Below are positions 1,753 through 28,590 of a DNA stretch of 29,520 bases, piece by piece (within the stretch, counting starts at the first letter, position 1; every line of letters starts with the position of its first letter). The DNA comes from Candidatus Zixiibacteriota bacterium (GTDB taxonomy: Bacteria; Zixibacteria; MSB-5A5; GN15; FEB-12). The notes beneath the pieces are model-generated. The model was not told the origin of the DNA, did no database searches, and saw only the letters and a program-made list of their open reading frames with translations. Made by a program: the position numbers and the translations under genes. The DNA lies in the NCBI GenBank assembly GCA_041742355.1, contig JBGSIV010000227.1, forward strand, positions 1 to 29,520, written 5' to 3'.

Positions 1753-3177
1753 GTGACAACCCGCATCTGCGTCCTCCGAATCCTGATCACCCTGTTGATC
1801 AGCGGCTGCTCCGTCGCCGACGTTTGTGCCGACAGTAACGATCTGCCCGGCCAGGCGGTCGTACAACTTGACCGGCACAGCTCGGCCGCCCGGGTCTTCC
1901 GTGGCGCCGGAGTCACGGTCCTCGACAGCGTCCCGGGTCTTGGCCTCTACCTGGTGTCTTTCCCCGCAGATATTCCGATCGAGCGGAAGCGGGCTGCGCT
2001 CGCCCGCAGGCCCGGCATCCTGCGCACGCATCCCAACCGTTCGCTCAAGCTGGTGCGGCCGTTTCAAGTCGAGGTCGGATGGCCGGATGACGACGCCCCG
2101 GTGTTTGTCAGCGGTGAACAACCCGCTTCCTACTACGGCCAGCCCTCGGTTCTTTCGATCGGCCTGGACTCGGCCCACACCCTCTCTCAGGGCGATGGCG
2201 TCACTATTGCGATCATCGACAACGGCGTTGACCGCACCCACCCGCTTCTGGACAGCCTGTCGGCGCCGCTTCTGAACGACCTCGTTGACAGTGACGACGA
2301 CCCGAGCGAAGTTCCGGGAGCGCTCTACGGCCATGGCACTTTCACCGCCGGCCTGATCCGGCTGGCTGCTCCCGCCGCCGATCTTATGGTCATCCGCGCT
2401 TTCGACAGCAGCGGCGTCAGCACGATCTTCACCATCAGCCAGGCTATCAGCTGGGCGGTGGATAACGGCGCGGACGTCATCAACATGAGCTTCGGCACGT
2501 CCGTTTCCAACGGCCTGCTCGAACTTGCCTGCAGCCGCGCCATACAGGCGGGGGTTGTCCTTGTGGCTGCGGTCGGCAATGCGGGCACGACTCAGCCGGT
2601 GTATCCGGCCGCCTACAACGGCGTCATTGGGGTCGGCGCCATCGACACCCTGGACTTCATCGCACCGTTCTCCAACGGCAACAGCGCCGATGTTTGCGCT
2701 CCCGGTATCAGCCTCTACAGCGCTCTGCCCAATCCCTGGCTCTGGGGGACATGGAGCGGCACCTCGTTCTCCGCGGCGCTTGTTTCCGCTACCGCGGGTC
2801 TGGTCCTCGCGCTCAGTCCGGAAATGGCCCCGCTCGATGTGGAATCCCACCTTCGGTCTACGGCTGATACCAATCTCGCCTGGGGCGCCGTTATCCCGCC
2901 CGACCTGTACTACGGCTACGGTCGGATCAATGCCTGGACGGCGGTCCTAGCTTTCCAGCCCATGCCGGCGGCCAAGTCCGGCGTTTTCACCGTGAGCGAC
3001 GTGCGGCTTATTGCCGAAGCATGCGCGACCGGTTACGTACGCGGCAACTCCTCGGCCTGGCGGCTGGACCTGAACCACGATGGCGTCATCAATCGCGCCG
3101 ACCTCGAACTTGCGGTTCGACTCCTCTTCGGCCCGCCGGACGACCCGGATCCTTTCCGATCGCGGCCGCAACGCTGA
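1753..3177 (+). CDS. Secreted S8 (subtilisin-like) serine peptidase with C-terminal dockerin-like Ca-binding repeat
   Basis: Signal-peptide-like N-terminus; catalytic triad motifs IAIIDNG, GHGTFTAG, SGTSFSA; oxyanion AVGN; C-terminal DLNHDGVINRADL. Confidence 0.92.
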   Translation: MTTRICVLRILITLLISGCSVADVCADSNDLPGQAVVQLDRHSSAARVFRGAGVTVLDSVPGLGLYLVSFPADIPIERKRAALARRPGILRTHPNRSLKLVRPFQVEVGWPDDDAPVFVSGEQPASYYGQPSVLSIGLDSAHTLSQGDGVTIAIIDNGVDRTHPLLDSLSAPLLNDLVDSDDDPSEVPGALYGHGTFTAGLIRLAAPAADLMVIRAFDSSGVSTIFTISQAISWAVDNGADVINMSFGTSVSNGLLELACSRAIQAGVVLVAAVGNAGTTQPVYPAAYNGVIGVGAIDTLDFIAPFSNGNSADVCAPGISLYSALPNPWLWGTWSGTSFSAALVSATAGLVLALSPEMAPLDVESHLRSTADTNLAWGAVIPPDLYYGYGRINAWTAVLAFQPMPAAKSGVFTVSDVRLIAEACATGYVRGNSSAWRLDLNHDGVINRADLELAVRLLFGPPDDPDPFRSRPQR

Positions 3178-3590
3178 TTTGCAGTTGGGGGATGATCACC
3201 TGACGAGGCGCCCACAGAGGGCGCCTTGTTCTTTTGTGAAAAGAATGCTCATGACGAGATTTGACGTATTTTTGCCACCCCGAGAAGTGACTGTGATCAG
3301 AAATGCAGATTACCGCCTTTTGTGACAGGTGGTGTCCTCTCAATCGGCGGATGTATCCCTGCCCACCTGTCCAAGGCGGTAAAAGTCGCACGTTGTGGCG
3401 GGATTGCTGCACACGGAGCGGCGGGTATATAGCGCCGCTTCCACAACCGCTCTGTGGGATACTGGGGAGCATGACCTTCCCCGGGGTATCGACACCGCTC
3501 TCTCCTGGGAAAGGGGGGAGGCTCCCGAGCACGTGATGCAGCGGGATTGATATGTAAAGTCCCCCACGGGTTGCAGCAAACCCTGCCCAT

Positions 3591-3630
3591 AACCGGCTGG
3601 ACAGCGCCCTCCGCGCCAGCCGGTTTTCTT
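3591..3630 (+). terminator. Intrinsic terminator-like hairpin upstream of the RND operon
   Basis: AACCGGCTGG (3591-3600) / CCAGCCGGTT (3616-3625) perfect 10-bp stem followed by TTCTT. Confidence 0.6.
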
Positions 3631-3767
3631 ATGCCGGAAAGGACCCGAATACCGGCTGATTTTCTTCCCCGGCCCAGAACTTGTCGGCCTTCTCGTTGTT
3701 ACAGGGGGATACTATTTCTCGGCGAAGCGTGATGCTTCGCTTCAACCAACAGCCAAAGAGCAGCCGC

Positions 3768-4889
3768 ATGAACACACCATATCTTGTCAGCACCCTGGGC
3801 CTTCTCACCGCAGCCGTTCTCCTGGTGGTCGGCCCGGCCGTCGGGCAGGGGGCGCCGCCCACGCTCGTTGTTACCGAACCTGTGAAATCCATGGAATTCC
3901 ACGACCAGATCACCCTGACCGGCCGGACAGAAGCCTGGGTCACCAGCCGGATTGTCGCCGAAATTGCCGGCCGCGTCGAGCTTGTCAACGCCGGTGAGGG
4001 AAGGGCCGTCCGCAAAGACGACCCCCTCATGACGATTGACTGTCTCCAGATGGAGTACGCCGTCAAAGCCAAAGCGGCCGAGGCCGAGCAGGCCCGGCTG
4101 AAAGCCATGCTCGCCTCCGACGCCCTCGAACGCGCCGAAGATCTCTTCGCGCGCCATCTCATTCCCGAAACCACAGCCGACTCGGCCCGTACCTGGGCGA
4201 CCATAACCGAACAGAGCTACTTCCAGATCGAGGCCGATCACCAGCGCCTCGCGGTCGATTATGACCACTGTACCATCCGCGCCCCCTTCGCCGGCTACAC
4301 CGGCCGCAAGCTCATCGATGTCGGCGAGTGGGTGAATCCCGGCACCCCGGTTTTCGAGCTGGTCGATATCGCCCACATTCGCGTCCGCGTCGACCTGCCC
4401 GAACGTCTCTTCGGCCAGCTCTCGATCAGCAGCGCTGTGACCGTTCAATCCGGTGACCGTGGTAACGCGGACCTTTCCGGCAAGGTCATCGGCATCTCGC
4501 CGAATGCGTCCGAAGAAACCCACACGTTCCCGGTTATCATCGATGTTCCCAATCCGGATGCCCGGCTCGCCGGCGGAATGCTCGTGCGGGCCACCCTCTC
4601 GCTGGACAACAAGTTTGCCGGCCTCGCCGTTTCCAAGGACGCTCTCGTCCGGCAGGGTGCGCAGACCATGGTGTATACCGTCGTGGACGGCAAGGCCGTT
4701 CCCGTCCCGGTTGTGACCACCTCGACGAACGGCGATATGGTCGCTGTCCAGAGTGAGATGTTGCGCGAAGGGACCGCGGTCGTTGTCCGCGGCAATGAAC
4801 GCATCTACCCCGGCGCCGCCGTCACTGTCTCAGGCGCCCCAACCGCGCCCGAACAGGTTGCTCCATCCGCTTCCGCGGCCGGGCACTAA
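3768..4889 (+). CDS. RND efflux periplasmic adaptor (membrane fusion protein)
   Basis: Signal/anchor after ATG 3768 (preferred start); lipoyl-like halves AEIAGRV...EG and IRAPFAG...DVGEWV flanking a coiled hairpin; adjacent to the RND permease. Confidence 0.92.
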   Translation: MNTPYLVSTLGLLTAAVLLVVGPAVGQGAPPTLVVTEPVKSMEFHDQITLTGRTEAWVTSRIVAEIAGRVELVNAGEGRAVRKDDPLMTIDCLQMEYAVKAKAAEAEQARLKAMLASDALERAEDLFARHLIPETTADSARTWATITEQSYFQIEADHQRLAVDYDHCTIRAPFAGYTGRKLIDVGEWVNPGTPVFELVDIAHIRVRVDLPERLFGQLSISSAVTVQSGDRGNADLSGKVIGISPNASEETHTFPVIIDVPNPDARLAGGMLVRATLSLDNKFAGLAVSKDALVRQGAQTMVYTVVDGKAVPVPVVTTSTNGDMVAVQSEMLREGTAVVVRGNERIYPGAAVTVSGAPTAPEQVAPSASAAGH

Positions 4890-4922
4890 CGCCCCAACCC
4901 CCTTCACAAGAGAGATGCGACC

Positions 4923-7900
4923 GTGAGCCTCATAACGACTTCCATCCGCTTTCCCATCACCGTCATCGTCGGCGTCCTCGTGGCCGTCGTGGGCGGCGTC
5001 ATTGCCCTCACGCGCGTACCCGTGCAGCTCACGCCCGAGGTCGAACGCCCCGTTGTGACCGTGAGCACTACCTGGGTCGGTGCTTCTCCCGGGGAAATCG
5101 AGAAAGAGATTATCGAGAAGCAGGAGGAGTACCTCAAGTCGATCGAGGGCCTGCTGGAAATGACCTCTCAATCAGAAGACAGTCGCGCCACCATCACCCT
5201 TGAGTTCCCCGCCGGCACCGATCTGACCGGCGCCGTTGTCCGTGTCACCAACAAGCTCAACGAGGTCCCCTCGTACCCGACGACGGCCGATCGCCCGATT
5301 GTCACCACCTCCGGCCAGCTTGAAGGGGCTATCGCCTGGTTTACGGTCAAGGCCGACTCTGCGGGCGTCTACGTTCCCCACAACCAGGAAGTCATCGAGG
5401 ACCTGGTCAAGCCGCGCCTCGAGCGGGTGGAGGGCGTTGCATCGATCAACATCTTTGGCGGTCTGGAGCGTGAGCTCCATGTCGTCTTTGACCCCGACCT
5501 GCTCGCCTCGTCAGGCATCACCATCGACCAGCTTGCCGGCGCGCTTCGTAACGACAACCGGGACATCTCGGGCGGCGACTTTTCCGAAGGCAAGCGCCGC
5601 TACGTCGTGCGCACGATTTCCCGCTATGAATCCCCCGAGCAGGTTGCCCGCACAGTCGTCACCGTTCGCGGCGGCGTGCCGATCCGGGTCGGCGATGTTG
5701 CCGAGGTGGAGTTGACCTACCAGAAGCCTTTCGCTATGGTTCGCCATCTGGGGGCTCCTTCCATCGCCTTCAACGCCCAGCGCCGTGTCGGCGCCAACGT
5801 CATCGACGTAATGGACGGTCTGATGGCCCAGACCGATATTATCAACAAGGAGATCATGGCCCCGCGCGGCATGCACATCGAAAATGTCTACCGTGAGACG
5901 GTGTATATCGACTCGGCCATTGATCTCGTGCTCTCGAACATCTACCTCGGCGGTTTCCTCACGATCCTGACTCTGTTCTTGTTCCTGCGTTCGCCCTCGG
6001 CCGTCCTCGTGATATCGCTGGCCATTCCCATCTCGATCGTATCGAGCTTCCTCGCGGTGGCGCTCACCGGGCGTTCGCTCAACGTGATTTCGCTCGCCGG
6101 CATGGCCTTCGCGGTCGGCATGGTGGTCGACAGCGCCATAGTTGTTCTGGAAAATATCTATCGCCACATGCAGATGGGGAAGAGCCGGTGGGAAGCCGCT
6201 TTGGACGGCACCAGGGAAGTCTGGGGCGCCCTGCTCGCCTCGACCGTCACCACGGTCGCCGTCTTCCTGCCCATCATGTTTGTCAAAGAACAGGCCGGGC
6301 AACTCTTCAAAGACATCGCAGTTGCCATCTCGACCACCATCATTCTCTCGCTGATTGTTTCGATCACGGTGATTCCCACGCTGGCGTCGCGCATGCTGAA
6401 GGTCTCGACAAAACTGGCCGGGCAAGATGACTCCAAAGGCTGGCTCGCCCGGTTCGCCCGGAGAGTAGCCGATATCGTCGACTGGTCCAACAGCACCGGT
6501 CGGCGACGGTTCGGTACGATCCTCGGCATCCTCGTCGTCGCCGTCGGCCTGACTGTCCTGCTCCTTCCGCCGGCCGAGTATCTGCCCAACGGCAACCAGA
6601 ACCTCATATTCGGGTTCATTCTCCCGCCCCCCGGTTACAACCTCGATGAAATGGTCGGAGCGGGAGAGATGATCGAGAATCAGTTGCGCCCACTCTGGGA
6701 GACCGATCCCGCTTTGGCCGACACCTTACCAGGCGGCGGCATCGACAACTTCTTCTATGTCGCTTTGCCCAATCAGGCTTTTCTGGGAATGGCCGCCCGC
6801 CATCCGGAACGCGCCGCTGAACTCGTCCCGATCGCCAACCAGAGCCTGTTCTCCATTCCCGGGGCGATCGGTTTCGCTTCCCAGGCGTCGCTTTTTGAAT
6901 CAGGCTTCGCCGGCACTCGCTCGGTGCGTATCGATATCTCCGGTCCCGAATTGCCCGAGATTCTCCAGATCGCCATCCAGGTTTTCGGACAGGTTCCCCA
7001 GGTGCTCCCCGGTGCAAACTCACGGCCCATTCCCGGCCTCGATCTTGGCAACCCGGAGGTTCGGGTGTATCCCGACCGTGTCCGTGCCGCCGATGTCGGC
7101 CTCGACGCTTCCTCTATCGGTCGATCGGTCAACGCGCTGGTCGACGGCGCCGTTGTCAGCGAGTACTTCCACAACGGCCGCGAGGTCGACCTGCTCATCA
7201 AGGGTCGGGACGATTGGAGCCGCCACACGCAAGACATTGCGATGCTCCCCATCGCCACTCCCGGCGGCCGCATTATCACCATCGGCGATGTCGCCGACAT
7301 CCGCCAGGAACAGGGGCCCGTCCAGATCAATCACATAGAACGCCTGCGCACCGTTTCGATTGAGACCATCCTTCCCGACAACCTTCCTCTCGAGGAGGCG
7401 GTTGCCCGTCTCGACCGGGAGATCGTCGAACCGATGCGTGCCCAGGGGGTGCTCGGCGGCCTCTACGACATCAACCTCTCCGGTACCGCGGACGACCTGA
7501 CGAAACTCCGAACGGAGCTGATGACCGACTTCCACATCGCGATCATCCTGACCTACCTGCTGCTGGTCGCTCTGTTTCAGTCTTTCACCTACCCGCTGGT
7601 GGTCATGCTCACTGTCCCGCTGGCCACGTTTGGCGGTGTCGTCGGCCTGGATCTGCTGCAGGTATTCGATCCGTCGCAGCAGCTTGATGTCCTTACCATG
7701 CTTGGTTTCGTCATCCTCGTCGGTACGGTGGTGAACAACTCGATTCTCATCGTCTACCAAGCCCTCAACCTCATGCGCGAGGGTTGGGAGCCGCGCAGCG
7801 CAGTGAAGGAATCGGTCCGCGTCCGTGTGCGGCCAATCTTCATGACCACCGGCACCACGGTGCTCGGGATGCTGCCGCTGGTAGTTATGCCCGGCGCCGG

Positions 7901-8093
7901 TTCCGAGCTCTACCGCGGTATCGGCGCGGTTATTATCGGCGGCCTGTCGGTTTCGACCATCACCACGCTGGTGCTGACGCCGCTCGTCTTCTCCTACGCA
8001 ATTGAATTGGTGCTGAAGGTCCGCGGCCTGTTCGGCCTCGAACAGCGTGCGGCCGGTGTCGCGCCCTCCCTGCAGGAGGAAAGCCGGGGCTGA
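4923..8093 (+). CDS. RND efflux permease (AcrB/AcrD/AcrF family)
   Basis: 1056 aa with two large periplasmic loops; GMVVDSAIVVLENI and RVRPIFMTT motifs. Confidence 0.95.
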   Translation: MSLITTSIRFPITVIVGVLVAVVGGVIALTRVPVQLTPEVERPVVTVSTTWVGASPGEIEKEIIEKQEEYLKSIEGLLEMTSQSEDSRATITLEFPAGTDLTGAVVRVTNKLNEVPSYPTTADRPIVTTSGQLEGAIAWFTVKADSAGVYVPHNQEVIEDLVKPRLERVEGVASINIFGGLERELHVVFDPDLLASSGITIDQLAGALRNDNRDISGGDFSEGKRRYVVRTISRYESPEQVARTVVTVRGGVPIRVGDVAEVELTYQKPFAMVRHLGAPSIAFNAQRRVGANVIDVMDGLMAQTDIINKEIMAPRGMHIENVYRETVYIDSAIDLVLSNIYLGGFLTILTLFLFLRSPSAVLVISLAIPISIVSSFLAVALTGRSLNVISLAGMAFAVGMVVDSAIVVLENIYRHMQMGKSRWEAALDGTREVWGALLASTVTTVAVFLPIMFVKEQAGQLFKDIAVAISTTIILSLIVSITVIPTLASRMLKVSTKLAGQDDSKGWLARFARRVADIVDWSNSTGRRRFGTILGILVVAVGLTVLLLPPAEYLPNGNQNLIFGFILPPPGYNLDEMVGAGEMIENQLRPLWETDPALADTLPGGGIDNFFYVALPNQAFLGMAARHPERAAELVPIANQSLFSIPGAIGFASQASLFESGFAGTRSVRIDISGPELPEILQIAIQVFGQVPQVLPGANSRPIPGLDLGNPEVRVYPDRVRAADVGLDASSIGRSVNALVDGAVVSEYFHNGREVDLLIKGRDDWSRHTQDIAMLPIATPGGRIITIGDVADIRQEQGPVQINHIERLRTVSIETILPDNLPLEEAVARLDREIVEPMRAQGVLGGLYDINLSGTADDLTKLRTELMTDFHIAIILTYLLLVALFQSFTYPLVVMLTVPLATFGGVVGLDLLQVFDPSQQLDVLTMLGFVILVGTVVNNSILIVYQALNLMREGWEPRSAVKESVRVRVRPIFMTTGTTVLGMLPLVVMPGAGSELYRGIGAVIIGGLSVSTITTLVLTPLVFSYAIELVLKVRGLFGLEQRAAGVAPSLQEESRG

Positions 8094-8247: not shown

Positions 8248-10020
8248 CTACACGGTCAGCAGTTGCTTCTGCGCCAGCTCGCGGTACAGCGGCGAACAGG
8301 CCAGCAGTTCTTCGTGCGTCCCCTGGCCGACGATCTGCCCGCTATCGAGCACGACAATTCGGTCCGCATGTCGCACAGTGGCCAGGCGGTGTGCGATGAT
8401 GATCGATGTCTTTCCGCGCAGCGCCTTTTCCAGCGCCACCTGGATCAGCTCTTCGTTGCGCGTATCCAGCGCCGAGGTCGCTTCGTCCAGGAGCATGATC
8501 GGCGGGTTCTTGAGCACCGCCCGAGCCAGGCACATCCGCTGCCGCTCCCCGCCCGAGAGCGTCACTCCGCGCTCGCCCACCTCCGTTTCATACCCGTTCG
8601 GCAGCCGCTCGATGAAATCGTGAATGTTCGCGACGCGCGCCGCGGCGGTCACCTGCTCCATTGTCGCCGTCTCTTCCCCGTAGGCGATATTCTCCCGGAT
8701 GCTCCCCGTGAACAGCACCGGATCCTGATCCACCAGCCCGATGATTCCCCGCAGTTCCTTCACGCCCAGGCGCCGGATATCCACGCCGTCGATGCTGATC
8801 GTCCCGCTGTGCGGATCGAAGAACCGCAGCAGCAGGTTGATCACGGTCGTCTTGCCCGATCCCGATGGCCCCACGATGGCCACGGTCTCGCCCGGTTCGA
8901 CCGCCAGGGACAGGTGGCGCAGGGCGAAGTCATTGTCCTCGTAGGCGAAATCGACCTGCTCGAAGACCACCCGGCCCTCGACGCGGTCCAGCGTTTTGGG
9001 TGTTGGATCCTCCACCACCGCGGGCGGGATATCGAGGTACTCGAAGATCCGCTGTACTGCCGCCATTTCCGACTGCACCTGGACGTTCATGGTCGCGAGC
9101 TCCTGCACCGGAGAATACAGATATGCCGTGAGCATGTAGAAGAGCATGACCTGGCCCAGGAGCAACGATCCGTCGCCGACAAGGTACGTGCCCCACGAGA
9201 GGATCACGACCGGGGCGATCATGTTGATGAAGTGCACGAAGTTCACCGCCAGCGAGTTGGCGACGCTGTTGCGAATGTACAGTCCGGTCAGGTTGTCCAT
9301 CACGCGGTCGAGTTTGCGCTGCTCCCTCCGTTCCTGCGCGAAGGCGCGGATGGTCCGGATTGCGCCGAACGATTCGGCCAGGTGCCCCGACAATTTCGCC
9401 AGTGTTTCCTGCAGCGCCCCGATAATGGCGTGCAGCCGCTTCCCGAACCGGTTCGAAACGTAGATGCTCAGCGGCACCGGTATGATCGCGACCAGGGTGA
9501 GTTCCCAGCTGACATTCAGCAGCCCCGCCATTACCGCCACCAGCCAGAGGACGTTGGTCAGGAAATTCACCAGCGTGGAGGCCAGCAGCCCCTGCACCCG
9601 CTGGACATCGGCCATCAGGCGGGACATGATCTCGCCCACCTGGTTCTTCTGGAAGAAGCGCACCGGCACGCGGCAGAGGTGGCCGAACATTTGCGATCGG
9701 ATGTCGGCGATGATGTGCGCCCCGACGTACCCCGCGAGGTAATCCCGGACCCAGCCGACCAGTGTGTTCGCAAGGTACACGCCGGCCAGGAATGCGCCAA
9801 ACAGCAGAATCGGCGTCAGGTCGACCTCTCCCGTGCTCTCCGCTTCGGCCACCAGGTGAGGGATGAGCGTGTCGATCATGTACATCACGGCGTAGGGCAT
9901 CGCCAGCATGAGCGCGATCCCGATGACCATCGTGAGGAGCAGCACCAGTTCGTGCTTCCAGTACGGCTTGAGATACTGCCAGAGCCGCCTGCGTGTCGTT
10001 GCGTCCGGTATCATGCCCAC
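8248..10020 (-). CDS. ABC exporter, fused permease/ATPase (MsbA/Sav1866-like); candidate RiPP exporter
   Basis: N-terminal TM domain; Walker A GPSGSGKT, signature LSGGERQR, Walker B MLLDEAT; no N-terminal C39 peptidase. Start is GTG 10020 or ATG 10014. Confidence 0.93.
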   Translation of the reverse strand: MGMIPDATTRRRLWQYLKPYWKHELVLLLTMVIGIALMLAMPYAVMYMIDTLIPHLVAEAESTGEVDLTPILLFGAFLAGVYLANTLVGWVRDYLAGYVGAHIIADIRSQMFGHLCRVPVRFFQKNQVGEIMSRLMADVQRVQGLLASTLVNFLTNVLWLVAVMAGLLNVSWELTLVAIIPVPLSIYVSNRFGKRLHAIIGALQETLAKLSGHLAESFGAIRTIRAFAQERREQRKLDRVMDNLTGLYIRNSVANSLAVNFVHFINMIAPVVILSWGTYLVGDGSLLLGQVMLFYMLTAYLYSPVQELATMNVQVQSEMAAVQRIFEYLDIPPAVVEDPTPKTLDRVEGRVVFEQVDFAYEDNDFALRHLSLAVEPGETVAIVGPSGSGKTTVINLLLRFFDPHSGTISIDGVDIRRLGVKELRGIIGLVDQDPVLFTGSIRENIAYGEETATMEQVTAAARVANIHDFIERLPNGYETEVGERGVTLSGGERQRMCLARAVLKNPPIMLLDEATSALDTRNEELIQVALEKALRGKTSIIIAHRLATVRHADRIVVLDSGQIVGQGTHEELLACSPLYRELAQKQLLTV

Positions 10021-10169
10021 GTCTGCTGTGCCTTCCTTGCTGTCGCCGTCGTGTCGTTCGTCTGCGGTCGCGCCGCCGCCTCATATATTAGCCTGCTGCC
10101 GGGCCAAAGTAAATCCCTGTTTGCCCCTCAGTACTTTCCGCCGGAGGCCTGTCCGCTTTCGTCTGTCAT

Positions 10170-10197
10170 AAAAAACGGCCGCTTCGACAGCGGCCGT
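10170..10197 (-). terminator. Intrinsic terminator after the second radical SAM gene
   Basis: ACGGCCGCT/AGCGGCCGT 9-bp stem (10175-10197) with an A run (10170-10175) giving a U tract on the minus strand. Confidence 0.75.
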
Positions 10198-10232
10198 CAT
10201 AGTGTTGTGACCTGCAGGTATAGCGCGCCAGG

Positions 10233-11333
10233 CTACTTCTGCGTCGACGGCTGCGGTTCCTGAAACCGCTCCAGCAATTCCCGAATGAAGTCCGGTTCAA
10301 TCGCCTGCTCGCCGCGCTTCTGTTCGATTTGCCACATGCAGTACGGGTTGTTGGCCCGCTCTCCGGTGGCCGAGACCGACGTGGTCATGCAGCCGCCCCG
10401 GCACAGTGGGAGGTATCGGCAGGAGTGGCACGCGCCCGTCGCCGTCCCCTTCGTGAATTTGCGGTTGTACAGGAATTTGGTCGGGTCATTCCAGATTTCC
10501 GTGAACGACCGTTCCCGGATGTTCCCTTCCACAAACTCCGGCTGCAGCGAGAGGCAGCCTTTGACGTCGCCGTTCGAGCAGATGCCGGCGATGCGGAGGC
10601 CGGCGCGACAGCCGAGGAACACCCCGTAGTCCCACAGCTCCGTTCCCTTGCATCCGTAGTAGCCGATATTCTCGCCGACGTCGATGCCCATGCGGTCGTC
10701 TTTCTTGAACTCGATGAGCTTGTCGACGAGCGTCTCATACTCCTCGAGGTTCATCACCATCTCCCGTTCCATGCGGCCGGTGACGGTCGTCATCTGCACC
10801 CGCCACTGGGGACACCCGACCGAGATCAGGTCGGCGTGGATGTTATCCATGTCCTTCAGGTTGATCTTCGAAATCTGGCTGACCGCCTCGTAGCGAATGC
10901 CGCGGGCCGTCATGAGGCTCATGGCATGCAGGCACTTGTCGTAGCTCGTGTTGCGCTGCCGGATGTAGTTGTGGATGTCCTTGGATCCGTCAAAGGAGAT
11001 GCCGATGTTGCGGAATCCCAGCCGCGCGAACTGATCCACGATTTTCTCGTCGATCAGCATCGCATTCGAGATGAGATACAGCATGACCCCGTTCGCTCCG
11101 ATCCGCTCCGCCAGCACGGGCCAGTCCTTGCGCAGCAGCGGCTCGCCGCCCGAGAGGGTAATCCCCTCCGAACCCAGACCGGTCAATTCGTCGATCAGCG
11201 CCAGTGCTTCGTCGGTCGTCAACTCGTCGCTTCGCGGGACACCGGCCGAGGTGCCGCAGTGAAGGCAACGCATGTTGCAGGCATAGGTGATTTCCCAGAC
11301 GACCTGCTGGGGGAAGAATTTGTACTCCGTCAT
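10233..11333 (-). CDS. Radical SAM/SPASM enzyme, PlpX/splicease-like
   Basis: VVWEITYACNMRCLHCG (CxxxCxxC), SGGEP, QWRVQMT..GR, GENIGYYG, GCRAG...GDVKGCLSL, CHSCRYLPLCRGGC...NNPYC. These match motifs I recall from PlpX-family spliceases. AAGGAG RBS lies within the upstream gene's end. Confidence 0.85.
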   Translation of the reverse strand: MTEYKFFPQQVVWEITYACNMRCLHCGTSAGVPRSDELTTDEALALIDELTGLGSEGITLSGGEPLLRKDWPVLAERIGANGVMLYLISNAMLIDEKIVDQFARLGFRNIGISFDGSKDIHNYIRQRNTSYDKCLHAMSLMTARGIRYEAVSQISKINLKDMDNIHADLISVGCPQWRVQMTTVTGRMEREMVMNLEEYETLVDKLIEFKKDDRMGIDVGENIGYYGCKGTELWDYGVFLGCRAGLRIAGICSNGDVKGCLSLQPEFVEGNIRERSFTEIWNDPTKFLYNRKFTKGTATGACHSCRYLPLCRGGCMTTSVSATGERANNPYCMWQIEQKRGEQAIEPDFIRELLERFQEPQPSTQK

Positions 11334-11337
11334 GGCG

Positions 11338-12705
11338 CTACTCCTTATTGGCGATTTGCGATTGATCTTGTTGCGAACGGCGCTGCATCTCCTGCTGGCG
11401 GGAACGCGCGATTATTTCCAGCATGGGCTGGAGGTTGTGCTTCCAGGTTTCGCACACCTCGACATCGGACAATCCCCGTTCGAGGCGGCGCGAGGGGCAA
11501 GCACCCATGCAGATGGGCAGCAGGTCGCACTCCGTGCACCGGGCATTGTCGAAGGGAGAGAAGTCAAACAGCGACCGGAAATTCGGGTGCTGGTAGTTCA
11601 TTTCCTCGGTGATTTGCCCGCACGCTTTCTCGGTCAGCCCGGCGTGGTTCCAGCAGCGGTACAAGTATCCCTCCGGGTCGATGAGGTGGGAATTGATCAT
11701 CGACGCCATGCAGAACGAGGAGAGGGGGGACGGGAGCTTGTCGATGCTGAACCCCTGCTCCAGCAGGAGCCGGTGGTAATCGACCTCGATATGCGAGAAG
11801 TCCGTCGAATCGTAACACGATTCGGAAATGTTCGCGCACACTTTCGACGCCGCCTCAACCATGCCGAAGTGCACGCCGACACGTTCCCGCAAACCGGCGG
11901 CCGTCAACTCGGCCAGCAGCTCGGTGATCGTGTCGGGGGTAAAGGACTTGTCGACATTCACCCGGATGCCGACCGTCATTTTGGTCGATGCGTACTTGAT
12001 ATTTTCGATAATCTTGTAGAAGCTCCCGCGTTTGCTCTTCAGCGGTCGCTTGACGTCGTGAATCCGGGCCGGGCCGTCCAGGGTCACCTGCACGAACGTC
12101 ACCCGCCAGTCCACCAGGCGATCAACCGTCTCCGGCGTCAGCAGGTAGCCGTTGCTCACCATCGAGGCGCGGTACGTGTACTGGTAGCGTTCGGCCATTT
12201 CCATGAACGCCTTGGTCAGCTCCTCGATGACATCGAGGGCCAGCAGGGGCTCGCCGCCGTACCAGTCGACCGAGAGATTCTGCAGGTGCTTCGCCTGCTT
12301 TTCCACGAAGCCGACCAGCGCCGTTCTGACCTCGGGCGACATTTTCCGCTTCGTTTTCTCCTCATAGCAGTACACGCAGGCCATGTTGCAGGCCATCGTC
12401 GGCGCGATGACCAGTCCCAGCCCCGTCCGGTCGTAGCGGTTCAGGTGGTGCTGAAACCGGAGGTCATAGAACTCCGAGAAACCATCCTTCCGCACGAATC
12501 CCCCAAACTCCAGCTGCTTGAGAAGTTCCGCTTCCGGCTCGGTCAACTCCGCCGCCCCGGGCCCGCGCAGCTTCGCGACCAGGTTTTCGTAAACCCCGTA
12601 GTTCTCGTCGGTCATCAGGGCAACCGCTCCGGAAAACGCGTTGTAGGCGATGTGGTAGCCGTCCTGCCATCGCTGGAAATGGTTATAGCGAGACACGGTA
12701 GACAT
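11338..12705 (-). CDS. Radical SAM/SPASM peptide maturase with N-terminal RRE-like domain (Cys-rich peptide/thioether-forming type)
   Basis: Likely start ATG 12705 (MSTVSRYNHF...IAYNAFSGAV); CNMACVYC, WYGGEPLL, QVTLDG; SPASM cysteines CMAS...YRCW...CTECDLLPICMGACP...C. Confidence 0.9.
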   Translation of the reverse strand: MSTVSRYNHFQRWQDGYHIAYNAFSGAVALMTDENYGVYENLVAKLRGPGAAELTEPEAELLKQLEFGGFVRKDGFSEFYDLRFQHHLNRYDRTGLGLVIAPTMACNMACVYCYEEKTKRKMSPEVRTALVGFVEKQAKHLQNLSVDWYGGEPLLALDVIEELTKAFMEMAERYQYTYRASMVSNGYLLTPETVDRLVDWRVTFVQVTLDGPARIHDVKRPLKSKRGSFYKIIENIKYASTKMTVGIRVNVDKSFTPDTITELLAELTAAGLRERVGVHFGMVEAASKVCANISESCYDSTDFSHIEVDYHRLLLEQGFSIDKLPSPLSSFCMASMINSHLIDPEGYLYRCWNHAGLTEKACGQITEEMNYQHPNFRSLFDFSPFDNARCTECDLLPICMGACPSRRLERGLSDVEVCETWKHNLQPMLEIIARSRQQEMQRRSQQDQSQIANKE

Positions 12706-12841
12706 GCTTTGATTCCGCCATTTGCAGTTCTTGACGCGGGGCAGTGCCCGGTTCTGCCCCACGCTGGTTCGCATCGTATTTCGGATGCGCCTATCTGTTC
12801 GAGGGACCACATCGACGGCCGGCCATTCATCGGACCGTCGA

Positions 12842-12874
12842 TCTGCAGGCCGGTATTACTGTCCGGCCTGCAGA
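12842..12874 (-). other. 12-bp stem-loop downstream of precursor B
   Basis: TCTGCAGGCCGG (12842-12853) / CCGGCCTGCAGA (12863-12874), perfect; no U tract. Confidence 0.8.
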
Positions 12875-12890
12875 ACAATCAGCATTCCGA

Positions 12891-12986
12891 TCACATGTAA
12901 ATCGGATCAATCCCGTACAAAGCCTTGGGACGCAGACAGCTGCACGGCCGATTCGCCACGGCCTGCGGGTCGACTAAATAGATCAT
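12891..12986 (-). CDS. RiPP precursor peptide B, 31 aa: MIYLVDPQAVANRPCSCLRPKALYGIDPIYM
   Basis: Translated by hand (below ORF-track cutoff); RBS AGGGAGGTGA at 13000-12991; paralogous to 13135-13221. Confidence 0.9.
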   Translation of the reverse strand: MIYLVDPQAVANRPCSCLRPKALYGIDPIYM

Positions 12987-13095
12987 GTAGTCACCTCCCT
13001 TCGATCGTTATGCTGTTGTGGTTCCCGGCCAACCTCGTCGTGAGCCTGGCTTTGGAGCCGCAATTTTCCACTTTCCCTGCGTTTGAAATCAGATC

Positions 13096-13124
13096 GCACC
13101 GGAGGCAGCTATCGCCTCCGGTGC
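13096..13124 (-). other. 11-bp stem-loop downstream of precursor A
   Basis: GCACCGGAGGC (13096-13106) / GCCTCCGGTGC (13114-13124), perfect; no clear U tract. Confidence 0.8.
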
Positions 13125-13134
13125 CATGGCGGTA

Positions 13135-13221
13135 TCAGATGTCGATACCGTAGAGAGCCTTCGGGACTTTGCAGGTGCACGGGCGATTCGCCACAACCTG
13201 CGGGTCGATTAAATAGATCAT
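13135..13221 (-). CDS. RiPP precursor peptide A, 28 aa: MIYLIDPQVVANRPCTCKVPKALYGIDI
   Basis: Translated by hand; RBS GGAGGT at 13232-13227, 5 nt from ATG; 22/27 aa identical to precursor B with multiple synonymous changes. Confidence 0.9.
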   Translation of the reverse strand: MIYLIDPQVVANRPCTCKVPKALYGIDI

Positions 13222-13578
13222 TCCGAACCTCCGTGAATGATCTTGCTCCAGGAGCGGCCGCAACACCGCCGGGGAATTCAGAAAGGAGACTCTTCCGGCG
13301 AACCGCGAGCACCCCTATGCAGCAAGTGGTGAGTGTAACGGATGCCCGACCGAACCAGGTCGCCCCGGATGCATCAGCACCCCGGACAACTCATCCAGGC
13401 GAGCGTGGGCTTCTCATTCTTCTATGGCATGCAATTTGGATAGCGGCAGCGGCAGAAGGACTGTGCCGAAACACCATGCCCCCAATTCACTGCCTACTCG
13501 AATTTCACTGGTATCCCATCAGACACTATCAACGAGACCACGAATGTCATGTCAACGTCATTTTGGTCCTACTTACAA

Positions 13579-16988: not shown

Positions 16989-18854
<1,866 letters not shown>

Positions 18855-18876
18855 AACCACTACACAATCCTTCCTG

Positions 18877-19650
18877 TTAGTCTCGGTGCGCCACAAGGGC
18901 AAACAGCATCGGGTACTTCGGCGCTCCTTCCGGCGGGTACCAGTACCCCTCGCGCTCGATCCAATCGTCGCCGTAGCGGTAGCACAGGCCGTCGGACTCC
19001 TCCAGCCGTTCCACTCTCAGACCGGCTGCGATCACCGCCGTGACAATTTCTCCCAGCGAGTGCTGCCACTCGACCGACTCTTCACTGGGTACGTAATCTT
19101 TGTCCGCGTAGTCCGGGTCGTTGTACCGCTTCGCCTCCCGCTCGAAATATGACACACCTTGTAGGTAGACGGTGGCGATCGGGTGAATGTCGACCATCAG
19201 AAATGTCCCGCCCGGTTTCAGGTGGTGCGCGACAACTCTTGCCCACCGGTCAAGACCGCCGACCCAGTGGTGCGTCCCATACGATTGGAATACGATATCG
19301 AATGTCCGGTCGATCTTTCCGGTTAGTTCAACCACATCGGACCGCACGAATTCTGCCTTCAGGCCCGTCTGCCGTGTCAGTTCATGGGCCAACTCAATTG
19401 ATCGCCCGGAAATATCCACGCCCGTCACCTCTGCTCCCAGCCGGGCCCAAGACAACGTATCCAGTCCGAACTGGCAGAACAGGTGCAGCAGCGACTTGCC
19501 GCGCACGTCGCCCAGGAGGCGCCGCTCGATTGGTTTGAGCGAATTCCACCCCGCCAGAAACTCCCGCACGCGGTAGTCCGGATGGTTGAAATGCACGTCG
19601 GCGATCTCGTCCCAGAGCCGACGGTTTTGCTCGTGGTTGGGATCGGGCAC
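18877..19650 (-). CDS. Class I SAM-dependent methyltransferase
   Basis: Likely start GTG 19650 overlapping the lptG stop (TAGTG); NRRLWDE, LLHLFCQFGLDTLSWARLGAEVTGVDIS, LKPGG. Confidence 0.88.
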   Translation of the reverse strand: MPDPNHEQNRRLWDEIADVHFNHPDYRVREFLAGWNSLKPIERRLLGDVRGKSLLHLFCQFGLDTLSWARLGAEVTGVDISGRSIELAHELTRQTGLKAEFVRSDVVELTGKIDRTFDIVFQSYGTHHWVGGLDRWARVVAHHLKPGGTFLMVDIHPIATVYLQGVSYFEREAKRYNDPDYADKDYVPSEESVEWQHSLGEIVTAVIAAGLRVERLEESDGLCYRYGDDWIEREGYWYPPEGAPKYPMLFALVAHRD

Positions 19651-27252: not shown

Positions 27253-28590
27253 ATGAATCGCACCACCGGGCTTCTTTTCATCCTGACCCTGCTGATGGTT
27301 ACCGCCCTCGCGGTCACTGTCGGCGCCACCGTCCCCGGCACCATGAACTACCAGGGCCGCCTGACCAACGCCTCGGGCACGCCGCTGGTCGGCACCTACT
27401 CCGTCCAGTTCACCATCTATGACGCCTCCTCCGGTGGCATGGTGAAGTGGCAGGAAACACAATCCATCACCACTGGCGCCGGCGGCCTATTCTCCGTGCA
27501 ACTGGGCTCGGTAACACCGATCAGCAGCAACGTATTCAGCACAGCCTCCCGCTGGCTTGGCGTCAGAGTCGGCGCCGATCCGGAGTTGTCCCCCCGCCAG
27601 CCCCTCGCCAGCGTCCCGTACGCCCAGCGCGTCGCTACTGTCGACAGCGCCGCGGGTGGCCATATCACCGGCGACCTTTATGTCCGAGGCACCCATATTG
27701 GCATCGGGTCGAATATTGACCCTGCGTCCAATAATCAGGGGATGCTGACTGTCAATAGCATCCTCCCCGGTGTCTCATTCGTGGGTGCCGGAATTGTGGT
27801 CGGGAATGACGCGGGCCCTGCCTATCTCGCCGTGGGCAAGGACTCTGAGAACTACATGTGGGCCGGGTACAGTGACGCTCATGGGAAGTTAGGGGTCAAT
27901 ACCGGCTTCTGGAAGAAGCCGCTGTACCTGCAAACCACTGGTGGCCCAATAGCTGTTGGCTCCTGGGACTACGTTCCGGAAGCGCGCCTGCATCTGTTCG
28001 GTTCCGACAACATCGCACATGGCAAGAACGCCTGTGTTGCTATTACCAACTACGCCACCAACGGCGGCTCCTGGTACCTCCGCGCCGGCGCCACCGGCAC
28101 CAGTACCGGACCCGGCGCTTTCTCCATCGCCAACTCCTCGTCCTATCGCCTCGTCATCGATTCCACCGGTAACGTCGGCATCGGCACAACAAACCCAGTG
28201 TACCCCCTCCAATTGGGCAACGGCGCCTACTGCAGCGTCGGCGGCACCTGGACCAACGCCTCCGACCGCGACCTGAAGACTGAATTCACCCCGGTCGATG
28301 GCCAGGCGCTCCTCGACCAGCTCTCCGCCCTCCCCATTACCGAGTGGCGCTATAAAGCCGACTCCACCGACATCCGTCACATCGGCCCCACCGCGCAGGA
28401 TTTCGCCGCGGCCTTCGGCCTGGGCGGCGACACCACCGCCATCTCCACCGTCGACCCCTCCGGCGTCGCCCTCGCCGCGATCAAAGAGTTGCACCGCCAG
28501 AACCAGGAACTCCAAAGCCAGAACGCGAACCTCAAAAGGCAACTCGAGGATCTCGCCGTAAGAGTCGAGAAGCTGGCGGCCGGCAAGTAG
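27253..28590 (+). CDS. Secreted fibre-like protein with C-terminal peptidase S74 (intramolecular chaperone) domain
   Basis: Signal peptide; TMNYQGRLT...LSPRQPLASVPYA N-domain; GNVGIGTTNP repeat; SDRDLK...WRYK...HIGPTAQDF...AIKEL followed by a coiled coil; AGGAG RBS. Confidence 0.88.
   Translation: MNRTTGLLFILTLLMVTALAVTVGATVPGTMNYQGRLTNASGTPLVGTYSVQFTIYDASSGGMVKWQETQSITTGAGGLFSVQLGSVTPISSNVFSTASRWLGVRVGADPELSPRQPLASVPYAQRVATVDSAAGGHITGDLYVRGTHIGIGSNIDPASNNQGMLTVNSILPGVSFVGAGIVVGNDAGPAYLAVGKDSENYMWAGYSDAHGKLGVNTGFWKKPLYLQTTGGPIAVGSWDYVPEARLHLFGSDNIAHGKNACVAITNYATNGGSWYLRAGATGTSTGPGAFSIANSSSYRLVIDSTGNVGIGTTNPVYPLQLGNGAYCSVGGTWTNASDRDLKTEFTPVDGQALLDQLSALPITEWRYKADSTDIRHIGPTAQDFAAAFGLGGDTTAISTVDPSGVALAAIKELHRQNQELQSQNANLKRQLEDLAVRVEKLAAGK

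Follow-up and report, generated by a model that had tools for sequence, protein, structure and literature searches.

What would a bacterium make from two peptides of about 30 residues encoded beside two different radical S-adenosylmethionine (SAM) enzymes? The question arises from a 29,520-nucleotide (nt) stretch of DNA from a Candidatus Zixiibacteriota bacterium (contig JBGSIV010000227.1 of assembly GCA_041742355.1), which was analysed as a whole and is called the window here; coordinates are positions in it unless a locus is named. Between 8248 and 13221 the window carries five genes, all on the minus strand: the precursor genes pepA and pepB, genes for a 455-amino-acid (aa) and a 366-aa radical SAM/SPASM enzyme, and a gene for an ATP-binding cassette (ABC) exporter. 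An earlier reading made from the letters alone (the sequence-only reading) had proposed a system for a RiPP (a peptide that ribosomes make and that is modified after translation), and the gene coordinates, gene lengths, 4-nt gap between the enzyme genes and residue numbers that it gave all proved correct against the open reading frames (ORFs) and their translation. The cluster almost certainly represents a functional RiPP family. What the family makes is less certain: we put at roughly one in two the probability of the whole statement that its product is an exported peptide, cross-linked at Cys and spliced at Leu-Tyr-Gly (L-Y-G).

The arrangement recurs across the phylum. Named relatives of the 366-aa enzyme all come from metagenome-assembled genomes of Zixibacteria. 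Its orthologues, at 56 to 77% identity, were found at 20 places in 61 related genomes, and at E ≤ 1e-100 they are present in 82 of the 285 genomes and 39 of the 130 genera of the phylum; six families have none (0 of 51 genomes). In a 50%-identity protein library the orthologous group amounts to a single representative (58% identity), the next full-length relative stands at 43%, and 494 clusters match at E ≤ 1e-30. We compared the window with 19 fetched orthologous loci (20 loci in all) and with one 2.5-kb contig, L003, which brings the number of sources to 21. The order is conserved: peptides, then a radical SAM gene of 445 to 461 codons whose product has the RiPP precursor recognition element (RRE), then the gene for the small radical SAM enzyme of about 366 to 372 aa. 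The RRE-type gene lies directly upstream of the small one in 20 of 20 loci.

The peptides themselves carry the main clue. A pattern for their N-terminal tag, applied to the 21 sources with no filter for Tyr-Gly (YG), returned 46 matches, and 44 of these carry YG; the 44 are spread over the window and all 19 fetched loci, with one to five per locus. The other two are an eight-residue fragment and one 36-aa peptide that is considered below. Similar peptides thus accompany the enzymes in 20 of the 21 sources, as the sequence-only reading had predicted; L003 starts inside the cluster, and no peptide lies there. YG occurs in the tagged peptides beyond chance, the background of [LMC]YG in the same DNA being 62 of 3669 stop-to-stop fragments of 25 to 70 aa. 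When 38 peptides are aligned, just four columns do not vary: M1, P7, Y24 and G25. Across all 44, X of X-Y-G is usually L (29 peptides), otherwise M (10) or C (5); one position further towards the N-terminus stands Pro in 42 peptides, with Ala in only the two from the window; and 3 to 19 residues follow YG, Tyr never being C-terminal. Every peptide has two to six Cys, the first of them at residue 15 in 26 of the 44 and at residue 16 in eight. The sequence-only reading had noted C15-x-C17 and L23-Y24-G25 in both window peptides, which is right, but C-x-C is not the motif of the family: the usual pattern of the relatives is CX3CX3C, and the C-x-C of the window is unusual. The window precursors are also the two shortest in a family that ranges from 28 to 44 aa. 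Copies within a locus are divergent, with hypervariable middles and tails.

An invariant Tyr-Gly of this kind calls to mind the spliceases, which cut a tyramine equivalent out at X-Y-G and leave an alpha-keto-beta-amino amide (PMC11414181; this and the other PMC papers are cited for the portions of their text available). The three families that the sequence-only reading had named when it called the 366-aa enzyme splicease-type turned out to be its three best NCBIfam matches, all below cut-off: TIGR03913 (209 bits, cut-off 592), TIGR04103 (206, cut-off 725) and TIGR04133 (181, cut-off 425). TIGR04103 is nif11-class maturase 3, which we take to be the PlpX family. The next matches are AhbD (149 bits) and MftC (148, cut-off 265), and PqqE scores 84. 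Among the nearest cluster representatives from other lineages listed for the 50%-identity library (roughly 112 of 113), every one except the fusion protein P0187, discussed below, also matches TIGR04103, TIGR03913 or TIGR04133 best, at about 160 to 317 bits, and none of those listed reaches a cut-off. Because the scores fall below the cut-offs and the splicease models are nevertheless the best, we place the 366-aa enzyme in a broad splicease-related group and in no curated family. The cut-off of TIGR04103 was exceeded in none of 14 control genomes. In Pfam the enzyme matches Radical_SAM (87.6 bits) and SPASM (36.4 bits); it has CX3CX2C at C19/C23/C26 and SPASM Cys at C242, C260, C302, C305, C311, C315 and C332, conserved in 61 sequences, and it lacks an RRE. 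Its best PDB matches are SkfB, PqqE, CteB and SuiB, and we know of no solved splicease structure. In the ESM Atlas the matches were generic radical SAM/SPASM clusters only, most often from Myxococcota.

The sequence-only reading had matched the 366-aa enzyme to L-Y-G, and a model of its complex with precursor B places L-Y-G in the active site. The model was built from alignments of 61 enzyme and 38 precursor sequences, with SAM and three 4Fe-4S clusters. It scored 0.89 (0.89, 0.85 and 0.92 in the runs), against 0.02 for the best control; 116 of 157 solved complexes reach that mark, as do 2 of 215 mismatched pairs. Between runs, at least 92% of contacts coincide, and the predicted local confidence (pLDDT) of the partner is at least 76. 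In the contacts of lowest error, Y24 and G25 lie against enzyme residues 12, 59, 61, 88, 109, 111 and 260-262, which form the active-site face of the barrel beside the invariant G62-G63-E64 and just before CX3CX2C. Precursor residues 2-3 contact SPASM residues 293-295 and 308-312, and a C-terminal helix of the enzyme itself (348-355) also contacts the precursor. The placement of X-Y-G matches that obtained with AlphaFold for the proven spliceases PlpX, PcpX and RhaX (PMC11414181). Binding of L23-Y24-G25 in the active site of the 366-aa enzyme is thus supported by the model. We consider it likely that the enzyme acts at Y-G, and somewhat favor tyramine excision as the reaction.

For the 455-aa enzyme the nearest relative of known structure is CteB. 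It is the best PDB match by sequence (5wgg, E 3e-14 over residues 17-241 in phmmer) and the best match by fold, over the full length (E 1e-20, TM score 0.65-0.71 in Foldseek). In an AlphaFold model (pLDDT 89), strands 8-12, 17-22 and 27-32 and helices 33-47, 56-68 and 78-90 give residues 8-90 the RRE fold. The enzyme is built like CteB (SCIFF, PDB 5wgg/5why) and PapB (ranthipeptides), with an RRE at its N-terminus, then a radical SAM core and a SPASM end rich in Cys, and Cys-rich substrates are common to all three; the enzyme differs from CteB in having about 18% identity to it in the fold alignment, a far shorter leader on its substrate and a splicease-like partner enzyme. The Pfam SPASM model gave no match at E ≤ 0.01, and 12 Cys are invariant in 25 sequences, namely C106/C110/C113 of CX3CX2C and nine beyond. 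The best full-length NCBIfam matches are Clo7bot TIGR04334 (330 bits, cut-off 600), TIGR04463 (304, cut-off 525) and CefB NF038107 (207, cut-off 600); FlmE/OhkG (198), geopeptide (183), PapB NF047865 (134, cut-off 340) and SCIFF TIGR03974 (82, cut-off 425) follow. The families that match it best are all named for maturases of Cys-rich peptides. We know of no published chemistry for the Clo7bot, TIGR04463 and CefB families, and a literature search on OhkG, FlmE, Clo7bot, CefB and geopeptide yielded nothing relevant; the available portion of PMC10288494 makes no mention of TIGR04334, TIGR04463, TIGR04103, TIGR03913 or PlpX. The description of this protein as a thioether-type enzyme with an RRE, also part of the sequence-only reading, finds support in the RRE fold and in CteB as best match, and on balance we think that it does make thioethers.

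A paralogous system helps to assign motifs to enzymes. At 11 other Zixibacteria loci, a 455-type enzyme (31-36% identity) is paired with a small radical SAM/SPASM enzyme of another kind (27-31% identity to the 366-aa enzyme). In the three of these loci that were scanned, the small enzymes match AhbD, MftC and a pseudo-SAM family best (150-170 bits), with 111-118 bits for TIGR03913 and at most 92 for TIGR04103, and Clo7bot and TIGR04463 are still the best matches of the 455-type partners. Eleven peptides were found in 9 of the 11 loci, with a tag MKFIExP or MKLIRLP and Cys, some with P-C-x-C like that of the window; their C-terminal ends are aromatic and hydrophobic motifs, and YG is absent from all 11. 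The underlying pattern gave 13 matches, of which two were dropped, one in a locus without a 455-type gene (L041) and one a 45-aa ORF in L035 that holds D-Y-G and is encoded on the other strand, some 3 kb away from the two enzyme genes. The paralogous system and the window cluster therefore have in common a tagged, Cys-rich peptide of about 30 aa, an RRE-bearing 455-type enzyme and a second small radical SAM/SPASM enzyme, and they differ in that the small enzyme of the former is not splicease-like and its peptides lack YG. Since YG is absent where the enzyme is not splicease-like, the tag and the Cys track the shared 455-type enzyme, and YG tracks the splicease-like one; because the loci are kin, the counts do not amount to independent trials. 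One of the 11 loci lies in the source genome itself, on contig 25 (L042, about 4115-6714, minus strand). It encodes a Clo7bot-like RRE radical SAM enzyme of 462 aa, a radical SAM/SPASM enzyme of 360 aa whose best matches are MftC and AhbD, and between them a 28-aa peptide with the tag MKFIEKP and P-C-P-C and without YG. TIGR04103 scores 205.6 bits for the 366-aa gene in this genome against 66.5 for the paralogue, and no other gene exceeds the latter value.

The two enzyme types also meet in one protein. P0187 (938 aa, from the 50%-identity library and a low-G+C lineage) is a fusion of a splicease-like domain (6-342) with a Clo7bot-type RRE domain (500-929), the latter 32% identical to the 455-aa enzyme over 440 residues (E 7e-77), RRE region included. 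The two types therefore work together elsewhere too. The locus of P0187 was not found in scans of genome contigs and metagenome contigs, which returned only relatives of 24-38% identity. Long matches on two metagenome contigs (L055 and L065) had looked P0187-like and were rejected, being four separate consecutive radical SAM genes. These stand behind a gene for a long repetitive protein rich in Gly, Tyr, Asn and His, are unrelated to P0187, and possibly belong to a repeat-peptide system of the cyclophane type.

How does the cluster compare with known spliceotide systems? It shares with them an RRE-less radical SAM/SPASM enzyme for which splicease models score best and an invariant X-Y-G with L or M at X. 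Among the known enzymes, type I, which has a Y protein, comprises PlpX/PcpX, and type II (Rheinheimera) comprises RhaX/RasX and RcsX. Cyanobacterial spliceases need the Y protein, and other types use a leader helix as activator (PMC11414181). The window cluster has no Y protein and no long helical leader; its family has precursors of 28-44 aa with a seven-residue tag, a second, RRE-bearing radical SAM enzyme that is always coupled, and a home in the phylum Zixibacteria. The C-terminal helix of the 366-aa enzyme that touches the precursor in the complex model might, speculatively, stand in for the activator. Rheinheimera enzymes spliced M-Y-G and L-Y-G with a loss of 135.06 Da, and their spliceotides inhibit elastase, chymotrypsin and cathepsin B (PMC11626197). 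According to PMC10849128, the survey of Scott et al. 2022 (Chem 8:2659) recorded PlpX-like enzymes associated with YG in 189 genera, and 27 pairs of enzyme and substrate were confirmed in it. A literature search that did not extend to that survey found no paper linking spliceases to Zixibacteria or to a coupled thioether enzyme. It found none for Zixibacteria together with RiPPs and radical SAM, and for a splicease alongside a ranthipeptide or sactipeptide the matches listed held only reviews and the Rheinheimera paper.

The support that these results lend to the sequence-only reading is computational, and from them we infer both reactions, their order, export and activity as follows. The 455-aa enzyme would bind the seven-residue tag (MIYL[I/V]DP) through its RRE and, by radical SAM chemistry with its SPASM clusters, join Cys sulfur to a carbon of another residue, with a change of -2.016 Da per link. 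The 366-aa enzyme would then take L23-Y24-G25 into its barrel and excise the tyramine equivalent (C8H9NO, 135.07 Da lost), which would leave a Leu-derived alpha-keto-beta-amino amide, the type of warhead that makes known spliceotides protease inhibitors. By calculation, excision would take the monoisotopic mass of precursor A from 3132.654 to 2997.585 and that of precursor B from 3509.770 to 3374.701. The ABC transporter would export the product, on which the tag is probably kept because no protease is encoded; in line with this, the 20 loci share no conserved protease gene, and the Pfam scan of the exporter gave no match to a C39 peptidase domain.

Several observations weigh against this account. 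The 366-aa enzyme scores a third or less of the splicease-model cut-offs, or at any rate below half of them, every NCBIfam score of the 455-aa enzyme is below cut-off, and neither enzyme belongs to a named family by NCBI's rule. The splicease kinship of the 366-aa enzyme is a matter of model scores and not of a tree with proven spliceases. Another Zixibacteria genome has a splicease-like gene that stands alone (L039, 239 bits with TIGR04103); no obvious YG peptide adjoins it, and the 106-aa ORF upstream of it is without YG. The 20 loci share no conserved small gene of the Y type, and a seven-residue leader is too short for an activating helix. One tagged peptide of 36 aa (L029:3734-3841, plus strand; MIFLIEP) has three Cys and no YG and immediately precedes a normal precursor with YG; the family shows no other exception. 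The complex model shows a possible position of the peptide and not which reaction follows, and its own alignments and riding ligands fall outside the calibration of the score. Since the families closest to the 455-aa enzyme are, to our knowledge, uncharacterized, the case for thioether formation draws on CteB and PapB, which are more distant. The Cys residues might also form a mere disulfide, as two Cys do in Rheinheimera spliceotides (PMC11626197).

These points feed two alternatives that concern one enzyme each. The 366-aa enzyme could act on Tyr-Gly by another chemistry, be it a Tyr-Cys or Tyr-carbon cross-link, a modification at the beta-carbon or an epimerization, which would yield a doubly cross-linked peptide without the keto-amide. 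Its scores far below the splicease cut-offs, the lack of a Y protein and of the helical leader that activate known spliceases (PMC11414181) and the blindness of the complex model to reaction type all leave room for this, and similar radical SAM/SPASM sequences can differ in reaction, StsB resembling MftC but making sactionine bonds (PMC10288494). We nevertheless regard such a chemistry as unlikely, though far from negligible: an invariant Y-G preceded by L, M or C is the signature of a splice site, splicing has been proven at L-Y-G and M-Y-G (PMC11626197), a side-chain cross-link gives no evident reason for an invariant Gly behind Tyr, and the splicease-related models score ahead of every cross-linker. 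The 455-aa enzyme, for its part, could make no thioether, the Cys forming disulfides or binding metal and the enzyme introducing some other modification or serving as a tag-binding scaffold for the 366-aa enzyme. The disulfide of the Rheinheimera spliceotides (PMC11626197), the uncharacterized state of the nearest named families, the sub-threshold scores and the presence of just two Cys in each window peptide, at a distance of two residues, speak for this version. It is rather improbable all the same, in that the best matches are maturases of Cys-rich peptides with CteB aligning over its full length, RRE included, the twelve invariant Cys fit a catalytic and two auxiliary clusters, two or more Cys occur in each of the 44 peptides, the first of them at a constant spacing from the tag, and the paralogous system keeps the 455-type enzyme and the Cys together.

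A further alternative concerns the cluster as a whole: the peptides might be precursors of an intracellular redox cofactor, in the style of pyrroloquinoline quinone (PQQ) or mycofactocin, and not be secreted. The PQQ and mycofactocin pathways both modify a Tyr of a small peptide, and MftC, a radical SAM/SPASM enzyme, carries out an oxidative decarboxylation at a C-terminal Tyr. MftC (148 bits) and PqqE (84 bits) are among the weaker matches of the 366-aa enzyme, the former below both its own cut-off (265, TIGR03962) and the splicease-related matches. The Tyr of the present peptides is never C-terminal, with 3 to 19 residues after YG; there are no mycofactocin genes nearby and no accessory genes of cofactor type conserved among the 20 loci; an ABC exporter homologue adjoins the enzymes in 16 of the 20; the one to five divergent copies per locus, with their hypervariable middles and tails, are unlike cofactor precursors; and the system occurs in only 82 of the 285 phylum genomes. 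A cofactor is accordingly a very poor candidate, and we retain the cross-linked, spliced and exported peptide as the preferred product.

The features of the window cluster are listed in Table 1. The precursor genes have good candidate ribosome-binding sites, GGAGG 6 nt before the ATG of pepA, which is nested in a 43-aa ORF with a GTG start, and GGGAGG 7 nt before that of pepB. The frame of the 455-aa gene is open from a GTG at 12810, and 24 relatives start at the Met of MSTVSRYNHFQRW, which corresponds to 12705. The ATG of the 366-aa gene comes 4 nt past the stop of the 455-aa gene, and its ribosome-binding site, AAGGAG at 7 nt before the ATG, overlaps the 3' end of that gene. Both hairpins in the precursor region are more stable than any of 200 shuffles (0/200 folded as well in each case), and the one after precursor A is possibly an attenuator or a transcript-stabilizing structure. 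The sequence-only reading had counted the exporter gene as part of the cluster; it is present, but a terminator-like hairpin separates it from the enzymes. The NCBIfam matches of the exporter are MsbA-like and below cut-off.

Table 1. Features of the cluster in the window, and loci grouped by a third radical SAM gene
Feature	Position	Strand	Description
Precursor A (pepA)	13221..13135	-	28 aa, MIYLIDPQVVANRPCTCKVPKALYGIDI; coordinates include the stop codon
Parts of precursor A	13135..13221	-	7-aa N-terminal tag MIYLIDP, C15-x-C17, L23-Y24-G25
Hairpin directly after precursor A	13096..13124	-	12-bp stem with 9 G-C pairs, terminator-like; -26.7 kcal/mol, z -4.3
Precursor B (pepB)	12986..12891	-	31 aa, MIYLVDPQAVANRPCSCLRPKALYGIDPIYM; tag as in A, C15-x-C17, L23-Y24-G25; tail longer than in A
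Hairpin after precursor B	12843..12873	-	stem of about 11-12 bp, no U-run; -29.5 kcal/mol, z -5.4
455-aa radical SAM/SPASM maturase with N-terminal RRE	12705..11338	-	proposed Cys thioether (sacti/ranthi-type) cross-linker
366-aa radical SAM/SPASM enzyme without RRE	11333..10233	-	proposed tyramine splicease at L23-Y24-G25
Intrinsic-terminator-like hairpin in the gap between 366-aa gene and exporter gene	10174..10198	-	10-bp stem, then UUUUUU
ABC exporter	10020..8248	-	590 aa, transmembrane domain and ATPase; Pfam ABC_membrane 27-305, ABC_tran 367-516
Loci with B12-type radical SAM gene	e.g. L013:3380-4813		L012-L019, L022, L023, L025, L027
Loci without B12-type radical SAM gene			window, L011, L021, L026, L028

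The inventory of two maturases given by the sequence-only reading holds for the window, whereas 12 of the 20 loci have a third radical SAM gene, of about 477 codons and with a B12-binding domain, that follows the small radical SAM gene and precedes the exporter gene; the terminator-like hairpin occupies its place in the window. The best matches of the B12-type enzyme are B12/radical SAM families, including a RiPP C-methyltransferase model, all below cut-off, and it is probably a C-methyltransferase. Inspection by eye, with no formal test, showed no link between the presence of this gene and the residues around YG.

RNA-library contigs, from three libraries in one study, extend over both precursor genes at 90 to 100% identity and in several allelic forms, for example 12928-13270 with 13 differences and 13169-13400 with none, and they give nearly no cover over the enzyme genes. 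This is a hint that the precursor genes are expressed, with DNA carry-over a possible source; because the contigs come from one study, their cover says nothing on relative expression. One such contig matches only the short conserved stretches 12991-13016, 13201-13223 and 13310-13335 and has other letters between them, and related strains there therefore carry different peptide cassettes in the same framework.

Among the other genes of the window, those for a subtilase (Peptidase_S8, 1753-3177), an HlyD-type membrane-fusion protein (3681-4889) and an AcrB-type resistance-nodulation-division (RND) pump (4923-8093) lie on the plus strand at 1753-8093 and converge on the end of the exporter gene. 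Of the 20 loci, only one besides the window has the membrane-fusion and pump genes; the subtilase falls outside the compared stretch, and its position beside a predicted protease-inhibitor cluster may be coincidence. On the minus strand, 16989-18902 encodes a 637-aa protein that joins a cyclic-nucleotide-binding domain to a class II lyase of the fumarase/aspartase type, an unusual fusion. At 27253-28590 on the plus strand, a 445-aa protein ends in Peptidase_S74, the intramolecular chaperone of endosialidases and tail fibers; the neighboring ORFs have no Pfam match, and this may be a phage-derived or surface-fiber gene.

A broader idea would extend the preferred reading to the whole phylum, and we offer it tentatively, as something that may well prove wrong. 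It would make these clusters a phylum-wide family of nearly leaderless hybrid RiPPs, in which the seven-residue tag recruits both enzymes to one peptide of 28 to 44 aa, a CteB-like thioether synthase binds the tag through its RRE, a splicease free of the Y protein reads the tag with its SPASM domain and has its C-terminal helix as a built-in activator, and the products are thioether-constrained keto-amide protease inhibitors encoded as one to five cassettes per genome. If so, nature would already have made the fusion that was engineered for RhaX, and the enzyme would serve as a splicing tool that is compact, consists of one protein and recognizes a very short tag.

Through spliceases, gene-encoded peptides gain beta-amino acids and a keto-amide warhead, and these enzymes are under development as protein-engineering tools. 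Those known need a partner protein or a long leader (PMC11414181), and the preferred reading, if true, would add a splicease that needs no partner protein for a peptide of about 30 aa with a seven-residue tag. The paralogous system without YG offers a comparison for what makes a radical SAM/SPASM enzyme a splicease. As far as the literature search shows (Scott et al. 2022 not being covered), this would be the first natural pairing of backbone splicing with thioether macrocyclization. For the Zixibacteria, it would mean that an uncultured phylum holds a large natural library of constrained keto-amide peptides, spread over 82 genomes with up to five cassettes each.

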